Part shown: positions 37,047 through 64,000 of the stretch, in pieces | Layout: every line of letters begins with the position of its first letter | Position numbering within the stretch: the stretch's first letter is position 1 | Virus record (IMG/VR): IMGVR_UViG_3300037245_002365 | Length of the DNA stretch: 64,000 bases | Strand: one strand, 5' to 3' | DNA from: a virus | Taxonomy: Duplodnaviria > Heunggongvirae > Uroviricota > Caudoviricetes | Notes under the pieces: generated by a model | Told to the model about the DNA's origin: nothing | The model's input: the letters and a program-made list of their open reading frames with translations, nothing else | Database searches by the model: none | Translations under genes and position numbers: made by a program

Positions 37047-37056
37047 GGTATAAGAA
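37047..37056 (+). promoter_or_regulatory. GGTATAAGAA motif (putative early promoter element), copy 1
   Basis: Exact 10-mer, intergenic, upstream of a plus-strand gene. Confidence 0.7.
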
Positions 37057-37091
37057 TTATGTAACTAACATTAACATTGAAAGGAACGAAC

Positions 37092-37673
37092 ATGCAAATA
37101 ACAATAAGTGATATTTTATATCAATTAGTGAATGGGCGTGGACTGACAGCAGACGTTATTGCCGAGACAGTAGGGGTTAGACCCGAAACAGTCGGTCAAT
37201 GGTTGTCTGGAATTAAAGAACCGGGTAAAGACAGTGCAACTGCTTTACTTACTTTTTATAAAAAAGAGTTTGAAATCGAAGATGAAGTTACGCTAGTTGC
37301 GCCAGGGGGCGAGACAAATGTGGCTGACGATAGCGTTGAAGAAGAGACCGTTGAACAAACGGCTGTTCATCACACTTCCACCGAATCCGAACCCGCTACT
37401 GAAACTGAAACAGTTCTAGAAGCGGACACTATTACTGACGACCAACCGGCCGCCAGTGAAACCAACAATGAACCAGAGGATACTGCCAATATGAGTGACA
37501 AAAAAACTACCGATCAAGAAGGACAATCAATTGGAACTAAGGTTTCAACATTCTTCCGTAAACCCGCTGTCAGGAATACCCTTAAAGGTATTGGTGGCGC
37601 GATAATACTTAGCGCAGCCGCTTACGGTGGCGCAGTCGGTGAAAGACGTCGCGGAGCTAGCACTCCTGTTTAA
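37092..37673 (+). CDS. XRE/Cro-type HTH protein with acidic linker and C-terminal hydrophobic helix
   Basis: LTADVIAETVGVRPETVGQWLSGIKEPG; SD GAAAGGA favours ATG 37092. Confidence 0.7.
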   Translation: MQITISDILYQLVNGRGLTADVIAETVGVRPETVGQWLSGIKEPGKDSATALLTFYKKEFEIEDEVTLVAPGGETNVADDSVEEETVEQTAVHHTSTESEPATETETVLEADTITDDQPAASETNNEPEDTANMSDKKTTDQEGQSIGTKVSTFFRKPAVRNTLKGIGGAIILSAAAYGGAVGERRRGASTPV

Positions 37674-37685
37674 CATTAATGGATT

Positions 37686-37712
37686 TGGAAGGGTTATAAA
37701 CCCTTCCATTTC
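37686..37712 (+). terminator. Hairpin/terminator
   Basis: TGGAAGGGTT-ata-AACCCTTCCA then TTT. Confidence 0.6.
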
Positions 37713-37757
37713 CTTACCCTAAAAATCATGCTTTTGGTGTGTTTTTTCGGTTTTATA

Positions 37758-37767
37758 GGTATAAGAA
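37758..37767 (+). promoter_or_regulatory. GGTATAAGAA motif, copy 2
   Basis: Exact 10-mer, intergenic. Confidence 0.7.
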
Positions 37768-37846
37768 ATATGTAACAAACAATAATATAAATAGAATCAA
37801 CACATAACGTGTTGGTGTGTTTATGTTGAGCATAAAGGATACCGCA

Positions 37847-38083
37847 ATGAATGCAAAGAATACAGCAAAGAAACATTGGTGGCAGTCAAAGAATACAACT
37901 GGCTTTGGCGAAGAAGGTAAACCCGCAGGTGAGCCTGTGAATTCTGAACCCAGTCGTGGTCGTTGGAGTCGTGGTAGTGATGCCGTTCTTAACGTAGCAG
38001 GAAAAGTAACTTTGTTACTGATTCTTGTTGCAGCGAGTGTGTCATCTGTAGAAAAAACTAAAAACTCCTACAATAACCTGTAG
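37847..38083 (+). CDS. Small protein with C-terminal TM helix
   Basis: SD AAAGGA before ATG 37847. Confidence 0.55.
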   Translation: MNAKNTAKKHWWQSKNTTGFGEEGKPAGEPVNSEPSRGRWSRGSDAVLNVAGKVTLLLILVAASVSSVEKTKNSYNNL

Positions 38084-38099
38084 GATGAAAATGCTTAGG

Positions 38100-38133
38100 A
38101 TAGGGGGCTACGAAGGTAGCCTCCTATTTTTAT
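38100..38133 (+). terminator. Intrinsic terminator
   Basis: ATAGGGGGCTAC-gaag-GTAGCCTCCTAT plus T run. Confidence 0.75.
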
Positions 38134-38153
38134 TTAAAATAAAAGGAACACAG

Positions 38154-38516
38154 ATGTCTCTTGAAATAACGTACAGAGCGCAAGCTTTTGTAGCAGCCAT
38201 AATCCTATTTGCATTGATCGTTGGTTTTAATGCCATTGGTCTCTCTTTGGTATCTTTAGCCATTTGTTTTGCATACTGGGGATTAGATCACAATCTAAAA
38301 AAGGATGTATATTGGTTAGAGATTAAAGAAAACTACTTTTCGAGGATTGGTGGTATTTTTTGTATCATTGCTTTAATCGCTTTTGTCTTTCATGGCGGAA
38401 GTGTTATTGCGGGATTAACTTTTGCAACTTCAGGACTTTTTCTTGCAGGTTTCAGCTTGTTGGTAGTATGGGAATATCTTCCCATAGGATTTACTCACCC
38501 AAAGTTTAAGGGCTAA
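38154..38516 (+). CDS. Multi-pass membrane protein
   Basis: About four hydrophobic segments; SD AAAGGA places the start at 38154 rather than 38085. Confidence 0.65.
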   Translation: MSLEITYRAQAFVAAIILFALIVGFNAIGLSLVSLAICFAYWGLDHNLKKDVYWLEIKENYFSRIGGIFCIIALIAFVFHGGSVIAGLTFATSGLFLAGFSLLVVWEYLPIGFTHPKFKG

Positions 38517-38527
38517 TTTGGGTGATA

Positions 38528-38557
38528 AAGGGGACTTGCTTTGCATGTCCTCTTTTT
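38528..38557 (+). terminator. Intrinsic terminator
   Basis: AGGGGAC-ttgctttgcat-GTCCTCT plus T run. Confidence 0.65.
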
Positions 38558-38569
38558 ACCTTAAGAATT

Positions 38570-38579
38570 GGTATAAGAA
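38570..38579 (+). promoter_or_regulatory. GGTATAAGAA motif, copy 3
   Basis: Exact 10-mer, intergenic. Confidence 0.7.
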
Positions 38580-38619
38580 CTCTAGTGTAACAATGTAACT
38601 TAAATAAAAGGATACGCTT

Positions 38620-39405
38620 ATGAACCTATTTGCAAAATTACCGATAATATTGGTTTTTATTTTAACCAATGTTGTCTATGCCAGTTTTGGTTTTTACTTT
38701 AGCATGATAGTTTGTGGAACAATATCATTGTTCGCAATCTTGTATGTTAATGAAATAACCTGTTCTGGTGGTTCCGTTCCGTTTTCAATCATGGCCGCAT
38801 TCTGGTATGCGCTTTTGGTTTTTCCTGTTTGGCAGTATGCACGGCTTACTGAGTCAGTCTTTCTTTTCGGTGCTTACCTAATAAGTTTAGGTTTAGTAGC
38901 CGGAGCACTGGCTGGGTACAGAAGAATATACGATGCTTGGAAGGAAGAAACATGGTTACGATTAGTTGCTGTTAGTGCGTTTGTTAAACAAACCCACACT
39001 AGAGTGTATAGTCGTCCTGAAAAGACACTTAGTGGTGATCTCGATATGGCTACTGTTTCCGACACACAACGTTGGATACAAGAGCTGTATGATGCTGGTA
39101 TTGGTAATGCATCGCTGCATGAAATGTGCTTTGCTATGCATGATTGGGATACTGTCCTATCATGGGTAAACGGAAGTACTTTCGGTATGCCAGTGGAGAC
39201 TGTCAATATTATCTGTGACCTTCACAGATACTTCGTTGATCTGGAAGAGTTCGATATAGACGAAGGTCTGCTCGATCTAGTTCCAGAGGATGCTATTGAT
39301 ATGCGTACGCAACAGCTTATTGATGCAACGCATGTGAAAGGGGCCTCAAGTATTGAAGGATTACTTCCGGGTTATCAAAACGAAGCACAATCAGAAAGTA
39401 AATAG
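38620..39405 (+). CDS. Membrane protein with N-terminal TM bundle and soluble C-terminus
   Basis: About four hydrophobic helices then an acidic domain; SD AAAGGA. Confidence 0.65.
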   Translation: MNLFAKLPIILVFILTNVVYASFGFYFSMIVCGTISLFAILYVNEITCSGGSVPFSIMAAFWYALLVFPVWQYARLTESVFLFGAYLISLGLVAGALAGYRRIYDAWKEETWLRLVAVSAFVKQTHTRVYSRPEKTLSGDLDMATVSDTQRWIQELYDAGIGNASLHEMCFAMHDWDTVLSWVNGSTFGMPVETVNIICDLHRYFVDLEEFDIDEGLLDLVPEDAIDMRTQQLIDATHVKGASSIEGLLPGYQNEAQSESK

Positions 39406-55361: not shown

Positions 55362-55426
55362 TAGTACAATGTAATCAATACACTAACAATCAGTTGGTGT
55401 TTTAATCAAACCGAAAGGATACTATC

Positions 55427-55681: not shown

Positions 55682-55715
55682 CAGAGTAACTAACAATAAT
55701 AAAAAAGGAACTATT

Positions 55716-58660: not shown

Positions 58661-59121
58661 AAAAAATATTAATTTTTCTGGCAATGGTATCTTTTTTAGT
58701 ACCAACGGCAGTTTTGCAGGGTCAGGATGTTTCTATTAGAGGAGGCCTAGGTTATCCTTTACAGGTTGTAGTTAAAGGAAGAGTTCCTTATGGTTCAAAT
58801 CATGTGGTTATACAGACTGCAGGGGATCAAACTCGAAAAAAGGGAGCGCTTCTTGGGGTTACAGCGATCATAAATGGTGAAGACTTTGATTTTCCTGTAG
58901 AGGTAGTTAAAGGTAGATTTAATGAAACATATACAATACCTACTTGGAAAATTGTTCAGGGTAGTGCAAGTAGAATTACGTGGGTTGTTTCACTTTGGAG
59001 AACAAAGTTTACACCACTTGCGTGTTCGCAACTAAATGGAGTTGCTTGTAGTAATTGTAAATTAAATGGGTATCATTTGGCAAGACGCCAAACCTATAAA
59101 GCACTTAAATGGTCTTTTTGA
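58645..59121 (+). CDS. Exported hypothetical protein with signal peptide
   Basis: MKKILIFLAMVSFLVPTAVLQG signal-like; C-terminal C..C..C. Confidence 0.6.
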   Translation: MEKKMKKILIFLAMVSFLVPTAVLQGQDVSIRGGLGYPLQVVVKGRVPYGSNHVVIQTAGDQTRKKGALLGVTAIINGEDFDFPVEVVKGRFNETYTIPTWKIVQGSASRITWVVSLWRTKFTPLACSQLNGVACSNCKLNGYHLARRQTYKALKWSF

Positions 59122-59248
59122 AAATTTTAAAAAATAAATTTTCGAAAGTTGAGGGTGGGGGCACTACCAGGTTGATTGCAGACTCTGGTTCGTCCCGGGG
59201 GTAGTGTATGGAACCTTAATCCTTGATGTCGAGTTTGGATTTGTTATT

Positions 59249-59258
59249 GGTATAAGAA
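59249..59258 (+). promoter_or_regulatory. GGTATAAGAA motif, copy 8
   Basis: Exact 10-mer immediately before the large structured RNA candidate. Confidence 0.7.
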
Positions 59259-59261
59259 TAA

Positions 59262-59832
59262 TGAGTGTTATAGTGTTAGACTGCTATGCAGTCTTTACTA
59301 CATACAGGTGGTTGCCATGCAGCCCCAAGGTCACTGTAGGCATTATGACACGCAAAAGCTTTTTTTAATTAGCATAGTGATTCCTTTCGATAATCTATGC
59401 AAAATGGAGTGGAGTAGGTAGAGTACGTGTGATATCCGCTCATCAGACAGTGTAGTGCCTGATTATTGTTGGTTACATTGTTCACGCATATTCCTTATTT
59501 CACTCCTATTTTTTTGATAATGCAACGCCATGAAGCCGTATAGGCGAAGAGAGTCACTCGCTACAGAAATCCGGACTTCGCGAAAGCCTTGAGCCGTCAG
59601 TAAAGTAGCAAAGTGCGTAACGCACACCCATTATCAAATTTTTAGATCGTCTACACACGGTTGTTGGGCTGGAGGGTCGACCACGCAAAACAGCTATATA
59701 CCGCCCATATCTCATTGGTATGGGCAAAAATTATAGGTACCCGACTTTGACGGTGCCTGTTAGAGAGGTGAACACCAATACTGTTCACCTCTTGGACGTC
59801 TTTCTATTGGTAACACAGTAACGCTGTGTTTT
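59262..59832 (+). ncRNA. Candidate ~570-nt structured non-coding RNA
   Basis: No ORF of 60 aa or more; at least eight predicted helices, one long-range helix, possible 5'/3' closure; own promoter motif and terminal hairpin. Confidence 0.6.
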
Positions 59833-60127
59833 GTGTTTGAATGCGCTATGCACATAGCGCGTCACGTAGCATCACCTCCGATGCGTTTAAGTCCCGTACT
59901 TCTGTACGGGCAAACTTTCAGTGTAGATAACAACACCGGTAAACATAAAAACATAGAAACTCTGATACAGCAAAACTCCGACATAAAAACATATGTTGTT
60001 ATCTGCACATATTTACATACCCCAGAGGCCCCTTTCACCGTTATTCCTAACACAAAGGGTGGTAAAAGAGAGTTTGTTATCGCAAACTCTTTTTTTACGT
60101 TAAATTCCACAATTCTTGTCGAATTCA

Positions 60128-60137
60128 GGTATAAGAA
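60128..60137 (+). promoter_or_regulatory. GGTATAAGAA motif, copy 9
   Basis: Exact 10-mer followed by CAGTACAATGTAATC. Confidence 0.7.
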
Positions 60138-60173
60138 CAGTACAATGTAATCTATAACAAAAGGAGACTACAA

Positions 60174-60317
60174 ATGAAGTTAACTGATGAACAAGTACAA
60201 GAAGCAATTGATGCTAGTAATGATGCATCACTAGCATTTATAGCTGGTGCTATACTTGGAGCAGTTGTTGCTACAATAACTGTATGTACTTTAGACTATT
60301 TCTTCGGAAAGAAGTAA
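60174..60317 (+). CDS. 47-aa single-TM protein missed by the ORF track (MKLTDEQVQEAIDA...)
   Basis: SD AAAGGAG; between the motif and a terminator. Confidence 0.65.
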   Translation: MKLTDEQVQEAIDASNDASLAFIAGAILGAVVATITVCTLDYFFGKK

Positions 60318-60324
60318 TAAACGC

Positions 60325-60357
60325 AAAAAAGGGGTTGAGCAATCAATCCCTTTTTTT
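60325..60357. terminator. Bidirectional intrinsic terminator
   Basis: A6-GGGGTTGA-gcaa-TCAATCCC-T7. Confidence 0.8.
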
Positions 60358-60466: not shown

Positions 60467-61138
60467 TTACCAAGTTTTTTGCCCATTTTCAGTACGCATT
60501 GCTATCCAATCATTGTAAACTCCTCGTAATCCTACGCGATCAAACAATTCTGCGTCAAACTCTTTATTTAAATGATTGTCACCCACACCTATTGCTGCTT
60601 CAACAATAAAAAGAGCGTCAGATACATCAGTTTTAATATCTTCAGAAAGTAAATCATCAATTACAGTATTTAAGGCTTCTATCGCAATAATCATATACTC
60701 TTCTCGTATTTTTTCCATTTTTCGATCAGAGAACATAAAAATTGTTGCTTCGTCCGATTCTGCACATAATTCGTCTATATACTCATTCGATCTTGCACGC
60801 AGTTCATCCATATAAATATCAAAACTATGTGGTGGTAATGGTTGTACTACATAACCAAGCCTTTCCATTCTATTATCAGTGTGTTGTAATCTCTCACTTT
60901 CAACAATATTTGTTTTTATATGCTCAAGAACACCCTCTGCAAAAGCAATACCTTCAGGATCTAATCTACAATCCCGTATTTTACCAAAAGTTTCATTACC
61001 ATCCCCATCTATACTAACTTCTAACGCAAGTCCTAAAGGATGAAAAAAGAGCCTATTTGCCTCTTGAAGAAAACCTTTCTCTCTAAACTCTTTTATATCC
61101 ATATATTTCATTTCATTTATTTCATTTATTTCATTCAT
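60467..61138 (-). CDS. Hypothetical protein
   Basis: MDIKEFREKGFLQEANRLFFHPLGLALEV N-terminal domain; TAATG-coupled. Confidence 0.6.
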   Translation of the reverse strand: MNEINEINEMKYMDIKEFREKGFLQEANRLFFHPLGLALEVSIDGDGNETFGKIRDCRLDPEGIAFAEGVLEHIKTNIVESERLQHTDNRMERLGYVVQPLPPHSFDIYMDELRARSNEYIDELCAESDEATIFMFSDRKMEKIREEYMIIAIEALNTVIDDLLSEDIKTDVSDALFIVEAAIGVGDNHLNKEFDAELFDRVGLRGVYNDWIAMRTENGQKTW

Positions 61139-63178: not shown

Positions 63179-64000
63179 TTATTTAGCAGTTTTAATGCGT
63201 CCTATGCGTTGTAGTGCTAGAACAACATCAGTAACTGATAACATTGCACTCTTGATTGCATCCTCTGGTAGTCCATTCAGTCCTACTCTAGAGGCAAGCA
63301 ACAGTTTAGCCATTTCACTCATTAACATTTCATACTGTGGAAGCATATTAACAAATTCCATAATATTATTCTTTTTAATCAGTCCTAATGAAAGCACAGC
63401 ATCTACTGTATTTTTATCAGGTATGATTGCAGCTTCTTTAACTAGATTTACAGCTATTTCGTCTACTTCAGATATTTCTTCAATATAATTCTCTTTGATA
63501 CTCTCTGCAATCTTCTCAATACCCATTGGTGCAAACATATCATAATCAAACTTAACTTTATCATGTTTCTTCATAGAACTCACTTTAATCAGGTCTTCCT
63601 CATATGCTCCACAATGTAATGCTGCCCAATATGCAGTATCTACATCCAGATCACGAATATCATGTCTCACAGCGTATTTCTCGAAGTCTGGGCCTGATAA
63701 TTGATACAAGCCAAGTCCATCACGTTCTACTATATTACGAGCAAAGACATTTTCTACTTTTTCTGATGGTTCCTCAATGCGTTCACCTGCCAATTTAATG
63801 AAGGTACTAGTCTCAGGGACTAGATAAGCATTAGGATACATCGCATGCTTTGTAAACTCTTCTACTCTATCAGTTACGATGTAAGAAGCTTCTGATGTTT
63901 CAAATACTATTGAATCATTTGGATTGTCTACAGTTGGTGCCAATTCACATAGTTTTGCAGATATTTTAAGCATATCAGCTAATTGTTGTGACGCTGCTTT
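63179..64000 (-). CDS. C-terminal part of a large head-module-type protein (5' end outside the window)
   Basis: Frame stays open to base 64000; contains KxA sites and TVDAVLSLG..LAKLLLASRVG. Confidence 0.65.
   Translation of the reverse strand, partial: KAASQQLADMLKISAKLCELAPTVDNPNDSIVFETSEASYIVTDRVEEFTKHAMYPNAYLVPETSTFIKLAGERIEEPSEKVENVFARNIVERDGLGLYQLSGPDFEKYAVRHDIRDLDVDTAYWAALHCGAYEEDLIKVSSMKKHDKVKFDYDMFAPMGIEKIAESIKENYIEEISEVDEIAVNLVKEAAIIPDKNTVDAVLSLGLIKKNNIMEFVNMLPQYEMLMSEMAKLLLASRVGLNGLPEDAIKSAMLSVTDVVLALQRIGRIKTAK

Follow-up and report, generated by a model that had tools for sequence, protein, structure and literature searches.

Does the longest ORF-free stretch in this piece of a jumbo phage genome encode a large structured RNA and, if so, what might that RNA do? 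The window (i.e. the whole stretch of DNA analysed here, 64 kb long) was cut from ~228 kb of an uncultured marine-sediment jumbo phage. A family A DNA polymerase, a large terminase and a 2103-aa ORF are all encoded within it, and the nearest IMG/VR phages share merely 62% TerL identity with this phage. At positions 59262–59832, where gene blocks of the plus and minus strands converge, the original prediction had placed a highly structured non-coding RNA (ncRNA) of about 570 nt with its own promoter and of no assignable family; sequence and coordinates match that description. Our results suggest that the stretch probably encodes a structured ncRNA that is real and functional and belongs to a new family; it is treated as a candidate throughout.

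Coding capacity, promoter and extent of the unit

No ORF-free stretch of the window is longer than 59122–59832 (711 nt), whether the threshold is set at 60, 75 or 100 aa, as had been claimed; the second longest measures 316 nt (60-aa threshold). The GC content of 59262–59832 is also higher (43.4%) than that of the whole window (38.2%) and of the flanks (37% and 33%), again as described. The non-coding character of the stretch is upheld by the presence of all three stop codons in all six frames, and a recoded gene was dropped as a candidate because any stop reassignment still leaves every frame closed. No start codon preceded by a Shine–Dalgarno (SD) sequence was found on the plus strand of the stretch, and the JGI annotation places no gene in it. 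The sole sizeable ORF (59833–60150, 105 aa) crosses a terminator and the next promoter; its codon score is 0.127, where genes average 0.325 (sd 0.08, minimum 0.18), and its codon usage is thus at the level of spurious ORFs.

The promoter attributed to the RNA can be identified with the box GGTATAAGAA at 59249–59258 on the plus strand (TGG-TATAAG once the preceding T is counted in, extended −10 type). With this one, the window has nine exact copies (at 37047, 37758, 38570, 52670, 55352, 55672, 56956, 59249 and 60128), all of which are on the plus strand and intergenic, and each of which stands before a small gene or an ORF-free stretch. The IMG/VR phage G003 (180 kb, 62% TerL identity) contains 25 exact copies, 23 of them on one strand, compared with one occurrence of a control pattern, and the box is identical in the partial relative X2/X3 discussed below. 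Because it is strand-specific and intergenic and recurs in G003, GGTATAAGAA is a genuine promoter signal of this phage group, and can be marked as such for a whole group of marine jumbo phages. From the spacing to the box, the RNA probably starts at about G59263 or A59264. One of the G003 copies (57008) precedes a tRNA-like sequence.

The extent of ~570 nt stood only in part: structure is indeed found at 59262–59832, but 59832 did not hold as the end, because the unit probably reaches 60064–60096, i.e. its likely 3′ end lies ~270 nt beyond the one first stated. A weak intrinsic terminator (T1, 59812–59838, plus strand) consists of an 8-bp stem with three G-C pairs (P 0.88) followed by UUGUGUUU. 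Beyond it, a 3′ extension (59839–60063, plus strand), to which transcription would read through, is predicted to form hairpins at 59843–60 and 59892–909 and a 15-bp helix (59921–35/59994–60008), which encloses a 58-nt A/C-rich loop (59936–59993) with ACAUAAAAACAUA twice. This loop could be a platform for an RNA-binding protein that recognizes A-rich motifs. The 13-mer ACATAAAAACATA also occurs twice (59943 and 59981) in the same loop, which is predicted to be unpaired. A strong terminator (T2, 60064–60096, plus strand) follows, with a 13-bp stem (AAAAGAGAGUUUG/CAAACUCUUUUUU) and then further U. The interval from T1 to T2 contains no promoter box. Folding of 59833–60105 gives z-scores of −6.1 on the plus strand and −3.2 on the minus strand, and folding of 59262–60105 (844 nt) gives −7.99 and −3.84, respectively. 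Because T1 is weak, the extension is folded and promoterless, and T2 is strong, we read the unit as producing two isoforms, of ~575 nt (ending at T1) and ~835 nt (ending at T2).

The next unit on the plus strand (60128–60317) consists of a GGTATAAGAA box, the leader ACAATGTAATCTATAACAAAAGGAG and a gene for a membrane-type protein of 47 aa (60174–60317), and is closed by a bidirectional terminator (60325–60357). The 47-aa protein has an acidic N-terminus, a single hydrophobic helix and a very high codon score (0.55), and has no relatives among 5.8 billion proteins. The neighbouring proteins of 158 aa and 274 aa, sought as anchors for homologous loci, also yielded no relatives, and no partner protein family was found among ten genes neighbouring the stretch. 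The 223-aa protein (60467–61138, minus strand, PHROG 3954) gave no IMG/VR locus, and the two other contigs that encode it are identical to the window. Only the N-terminal ~40% of this protein is widespread, with 131 relatives that are mostly proteins of 120–190 aa; a few relatives are annotated as, or bear, a GrpE domain (PF01025).

Predicted fold, invariant core and distribution

The plus strand of 59262–59832 folds with an MFE of −192.3 kcal/mol (z −6.47), which none of 100 shuffles equalled; the minus strand reaches −158.5 kcal/mol (z −2.23). Compared with 434 windows of the same length on both strands after composition regression, the plus strand ranks 1 of 435 with a residual of −38 kcal/mol (z −3.6), and the minus strand is ordinary. 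The folding thus goes beyond both shuffles and genomic background, on the plus strand only, which bears out the description of the stretch as highly structured. Pair probabilities in the 571-nt plus-strand fold have a median of 0.90, with 5% of pairs below 0.5. After the stretch itself, the plus strand of 37336–38760 shows the largest folding excess once composition is adjusted for (residuals of −26 to −30 kcal/mol per 571 nt); it lies in the other block of GGTATAAGAA units.

All helices listed in the original prediction are present in the minimum-energy fold, with pair probabilities (P) of 0.72–1.0; the coordinates that follow are all on the plus strand. In the 5′ domain (59265–59351), a 12-bp stem (59265–76/59340–51) encloses hairpins at 59278–94 and 59298–339 (P 0.86–0.98), the former being AGACTGC/GCAGTCT (59278–84/59288–94, P 0.98). 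The hairpin GCAUAG/CUAUGC (59372–77/59395–400, P 0.74) is followed by a long hairpin domain (59401–59512) that contains the invariant core described below and consists of a long-range outer stem (59401–18/59494–512), middle stems (59421–32/59482–93) and an apical hairpin (59447–81), with P 0.72–0.99 both for the outer stem and for the inner parts. A multi-branch domain (59513–59638), closed by UUUGAUAAUG/CAUUAUCAAA, contains the GCGAAAGC hairpin with its GAAA tetraloop (59580–59587) and the hairpin GUGCG/CGCAC (59613–17/59621–25, P 0.97). The other multi-branch domain (59644–59801) has strong hairpins (P 0.92–1.0) at 59703–25, 59733–60 and 59763–93, formed by the helices 59703–11/59717–25 (P 1.0), 59733–41/59752–60 (P 0.92) and 59763–74/59782–93 (P 0.95), and, at z −7.9, is more structured than any other 200-nt segment of the 12 kb tested.

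By contrast with these helices, the closure of the two ends that had been suggested (59265–78 with 59811–24) is not the preferred pairing: the 5′ end pairs with 59340–51 (P 0.90), and the closure also loses to the terminal hairpin 59812–30 (P 0.88). The best candidate pseudoknot partner of the 14-nt bulge UAUCCGCUCAUCAG, which lies within the invariant core, is 59660–80 (−14.4 kcal/mol, single sequence). Six-base palindromes are not enriched in the stretch (12 vs 14 expected), and a restriction-site or palindrome array was dropped on this count.

Contigs of three sequencing runs were compared with the stretch and gave one independent relative (X2/X3), seen in two samples or runs of one marine metagenome study. 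Its 657-nt contig matches 59197–59268 (i.e. an upstream element U, the promoter and the first RNA bases) with six substitutions and a 9-nt insertion, and then has 392 other nucleotides in place of the 146 nt that the window has between 59268 and 59415. Because everything between these two positions is replaced, the 5′ part of the RNA is variable. The invariant core (59415–59483, plus strand) comprises 69 nt, bulge UAUCCGCUCAUCAG included, with no difference between window and relative, and its flanks (30 nt on each side) diverge by ~20–25%. By our own arithmetic, 69 identical positions beside flanks with ~22% divergence have a chance probability of the order of 1e-7.

The divergent flanks of the relative still fold into the same long hairpin. 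Its outer stem differs from that of the window by (i) two pairs in which both partners are exchanged (one A-U to U-A, one U-A to A-U); (ii) a matched 2-bp deletion on both strands (GGAGUG/CACUCC to GGUG/CACC); and (iii) three G.U pairs that become A-U or G-C. No pair is lost in this comparison, which covers one partial relative with 129 nt known. G.U pairs occur only in the plus-strand RNA and therefore argue for RNA. A decayed gene, named beforehand as an outcome that would count against the RNA, is not supported; the changes seen in the partial relative are compensatory. From one comparison only, the core and the helix presenting it can be shown to be, in all appearance, under strong selection.

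Element U (59197–59227, plus strand; GGGGG-TAGT-GTATGGAACCTTAATCCTTGAT) lies 21 nt before the promoter box and has the general form GGGG(N4-6)GTATGGAACCTnAAnCCTTGAT (~31 nt). Further copies occur in the X2/X3 relative and in G003, and five distinct metagenome contigs have the element too. Outside the relative, these copies lie in L005/L021 (G003 79849–79878, minus strand), L018, L019/L022, L020, L023 and L024, where L019 and L022 are one metagenome contig recovered twice. The element is always near the end of a same-strand gene block, with unrelated DNA after it, and the RNA has no homologue at the loci reached through it. The element matches nothing in Rfam and shows no obvious structure (z −1.1 for 59130–59262); it may or may not belong to the RNA unit. 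An opposite-strand GGTATAAGAA box in G003 serves a 40-aa ORF rich in Gly, Tyr and Arg (L005 1140–1262, plus strand; G003 ~79488–79610), which has a good SD and reads towards element U. A positional analogue of the RNA in G003 was rejected, as this place shows only moderate structure, on both strands, plus the 40-aa ORF.

The claim that no family can be assigned agrees with a cmscan of the whole window against Rfam, which returned no match at the gathering score. At E up to 10 and with lax filters, 59000–60300 gave only five chance-level matches to miRNAs or sRNAs, and no match was found to Rfam 15 models, including those of ribozymes, introns, riboswitches, OLE, HEARO, 6S, tmRNA and C4. Searches by sequence gave no homologue of the stretch in INPHARED phages (blastn) and no exact 20-mers from the core or the RNA start in IMG/VR; one core 20-mer was searched in JGI metagenome contigs and is absent from them. 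BLAST against four IMG/VR relatives (62% TerL identity) recovered the promoter box and element U only. The single genome-contig match, in a Desulfobacterales MAG, was discarded: this 20-mer falls within an adenylation-domain ORF and is put down to chance. Two to four of five sampled core words are present in some 15 additional runs from marine, sediment and cold-seep sites, which is a lead and not distribution evidence. No RNA sequencing runs were listed with the stretch or the core, a result that is neutral on expression. The stretch is a candidate large phage ncRNA of no catalogued family.

Leader complementarity and rival explanations

Predicted transcripts of the GGTATAAGAA class open, 4–7 nt past the promoter box, with one of two leader boxes: GTAACnAACAATAA (37061–37074 with one mismatch, 37772–37785 and 55686–55699) or ACAATGTAA (38590–38598, 55366–55374 and 60142–60150). 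Within the invariant core, the segment UUAUUGUUGGUUACAUUGU (59463–59481, plus strand; hereafter the anti-leader) is the reverse complement of both. The window has three exact copies of GTAACnAACAATAA, two of them just after promoters and the third antisense in the core; ACAATGTAA is found in three leaders and, again antisense, in the core, and chance would give 1.2 matches. Across the two strands (128 kb), the other exact leader-box copies are the antisense one in the core (reverse complement ACAATGTAACCAACAATAA) and a ACAATGTAA at 63611. The leaders of G003 have GTAGGTAGAG or AAGGTAGGT instead of GTAACnAACAATAA and ACAATGTAA, and G003 has no comparable anti-leader against its own leaders. The G003-type GTAGGTAGAG is found once in the window, inside the RNA core (59414–59423).

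The best duplex site in the RNA is 59463–59482 for six of eight leaders, and the summed leader duplex energy is −159 kcal/mol, compared with −119 kcal/mol for shuffles (sd 5.9, z −6.8). When the RNA is compared by BLAST with the remainder of the window, the leader complements are the top matches. The paired leader bases lie 3–25 nt from the SD sequences of small-protein genes. The unit of the 47-aa gene, in which 31 nt are 71% complementary to 59451–59481, may be among the targets of the anti-leader. An 8-bp stem (P 0.96) ties up the 3′ half of the anti-leader, and when the whole domain is cofolded with the leaders one by one, nothing is gained on balance (ddG ~0). Corrected for accessibility by local opening energies, the pairing amounts to −5 to −8 kcal/mol, a limited lead over shuffled leaders, which have means of −1 to −3 kcal/mol with minima down to −7. 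The leader box accounts for 19 of the 69 invariant nucleotides.

An origin for this complementarity is suggested by the minus strand of 59400–59520, which aligns over ~75 nt with the promoter–leader–start module of the 47-aa gene. The promoter box of this inverted module agrees with GGTATAAGAA at 6 of 10 positions and is still more degenerate in the relative; in addition, 59391–59409 is a direct 79% copy of the leader at 60148–60166. Because the minus strand aligns with such a module, the core hairpin probably arose by inverted module duplication, and the leader complementarity could, for the same reason, be a relic of that duplication.

If the complementarity is in use, the following mechanism can be proposed. 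Transcription would start at ~59263 from GGTATAAGAA, a promoter class that also drives small accessory genes; part of it would stop at the weak terminator (~59838, ~575 nt) and the rest at the strong one (~60096, ~835 nt). The functional module would be the hairpin domain 59401–59512 with its 69-nt invariant core, whose apical part and 3′ arm (59461–59482) would pair with the leader box of early mRNAs near their ribosome-binding sites. As a stable RNA accumulates, it would damp the translation or stability of early small-protein messages, and would thus do as an RNA what a global early shut-off factor does. The rest of the molecule, three quarters of it, would be a stabilizing scaffold or might have a second activity.

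An independent plus-strand unit that encodes a large folded ncRNA, with a core acting antisense on early leaders, is the best explanation that we can offer, and we hold it with somewhat less than even confidence. Antisense action on the leaders as the role of the RNA is itself a tentative proposal: the RNA has the same promoter class as its supposed targets, antisense function needs far less than 570–840 nt, and the leaders of G003 differ and face no comparable anti-leader. The widest version seems unlikely to us, i.e. a new family of 570–840-nt RNAs of marine jumbo phages, with a core that acts in trans on a shared early leader box. The same low expectation applies to its corollary of an RNA-only controller of global shut-off or dosage, possibly with a GOLLD- or ROOL-like architecture.

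A shape-based role ranks close behind antisense as the mechanism. A real large ncRNA could act by its three-dimensional form, either as a decoy that binds a protein or the ribosome or as a GOLLD/ROOL-type particle, with the anti-leader as a relic. Its large size, its many well-defined helices and the GAAA tetraloop hairpin at 59580–59587 would fit such a role, as would the energetically weak leader pairing and a 5′ part that varies ahead of a conserved later part, an arrangement also reported for GOLLD (10.1101/2024.12.08.627333). All 69 core nucleotides are invariant, the 14-nt bulge included, and as this bulge bears no relation to the leaders, the core seems to have some other partner. Against a shape-based role, no GOLLD, ROOL, OLE or other Rfam model matches even at E 10, the ten neighbouring genes offer no partner protein family, 6-bp palindromes are not enriched, and GOLLD and ROOL usually lie near tRNA islands, but ARAGORN detects no tRNA anywhere in the 64 kb of the window. 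On balance, we regard this role as possible but rather doubtful. Functionless debris is a less probable reading again, and one that we would not expect to hold: inverted as well as direct copies of promoter–leader modules would have collected, together with terminator hairpins, at a convergent junction of gene blocks, whether transcribed or not, with the folding as a by-product. In its favour are the module-like minus strand of 59400–59520, the leader copy at 59391–59409, the convergent position and a narrow distribution, as searches of IMG/VR, INPHARED and the JGI contigs gave no homologue; in G003, moreover, the syntenic place is taken by DNA that is unrelated, folds weakly and has a small ORF. 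Debris does not, however, account for 69 identical nucleotides beside flanks so divergent, for compensatory changes in the stem, for a promoter box that is exact where the inverted copy is degenerate, or for a folding excess that is the largest of the window and confined to one strand.

It is very improbable that the stretch acts as DNA, be it as a replication origin, a packaging site or a platform, in either orientation, for a phage regulator that recognizes the leader box. Cumulative GC skew turns at the stretch, the leader box stands at a fixed distance from promoters and once inverted inside the stretch, and the conserved element U adjoins it. The skew turn coincides, however, with the switch in gene orientation, and the stretch is GC-richer than its flanks, not AT-rich. 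A replication origin had been named in advance as a finding that would overturn the RNA, but the stretch has no iterons, tandem repeats or DnaA-box cluster. The strand asymmetry of folding (34 kcal/mol) and the G.U pairs favour RNA over DNA, and an exact promoter and terminators bracket the stretch. Hardly credible, finally, is a small minus-strand protein as the cause of core conservation. A frame of 38 aa starts from GTG 59485, with AAGGAA before it, and the relative has 28 aa from ATG in the same frame; in both phages a start codon with an SD-like sequence before it opens the frame, which no stop interrupts within the core. The 23 codons compared, however, contain no synonymous difference while the flanks diverge, the C-termini are unrelated and the lengths differ, and the codon score (−0.15) is below that of spurious ORFs. 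The putative promoter keeps 6 of 10 box positions, and fewer in the relative, and the only phmmer match among 1.84 billion representatives is a low-complexity repeat protein.

Relation to known phage RNAs and regulators

To our knowledge, only a handful of bacterial and phage RNA classes exceed 500 nt, and among these the functions of GOLLD and ROOL in phages are still open. The present candidate is well delimited by an exact promoter, terminators and an invariant core, and comes with a concrete hypothesis of leader pairing. If the antisense hypothesis is true, one RNA can control a whole temporal gene class of a phage; if it fails, the candidate would still be a good substrate for work on large natural RNA structures.

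Particles of the ROOL/GOLLD type are homo-oligomeric cages held by kissing loops, and the Rfam covariance model of GOLLD covers its conserved 3′ domain. GOLLD and ROOL are reported to be phage-encoded, to reach more than 800 nt, to have an unknown function and usually to lie beside tRNA islands (10.1101/2024.12.08.627333). Like them, the candidate is phage-encoded, several hundred to ~800 nt long and rich in helices, with no associated protein known. Its variable 5′ part precedes a conserved later part, the arrangement described for GOLLD (10.1101/2024.12.08.627333). Unlike GOLLD and ROOL, it matches neither covariance model and has no neighbouring tRNA genes, and unlike these broad families it is known so far from one phage and one partial relative.

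Antisense control by phage RNAs has precedents: the c4 RNA of P1 and P7 acts on the ant leader, and the CI RNA of P4 is likewise a trans-acting antisense RNA. Both are ~80 nt long, processed and dedicated to one operon each, and such RNAs are made upstream of, or together with, their targets. The candidate resembles them in having a short hairpin stretch complementary to leaders near the ribosome-binding site and in sharing a promoter class with its possible targets. It differs in its length (570–840 nt) and in that its box is common to at least six separate transcripts; unlike c4, it has no match to the Rfam C4 model and its predicted pairing is weak.

Type I toxin–antitoxin systems combine a small hydrophobic peptide with a partly complementary sRNA. 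The 47-aa protein with one hydrophobic helix, encoded 70 nt downstream of the candidate, recalls such peptides, and the leader, SD and first codons of its gene supply the 31 nt with 71% complementarity to the core. In contrast to these systems, the arrangement here is tandem and not overlapping or divergent, the candidate is far larger than any antitoxin, and its box occurs on other leaders too.

The RegA and RegB proteins of T4 shut off many early mRNAs through their initiation regions. By analogy only, the proposed scheme would likewise have one factor act on a motif that early messages share near their SD sequences, with the difference that the agent proposed here is an RNA.
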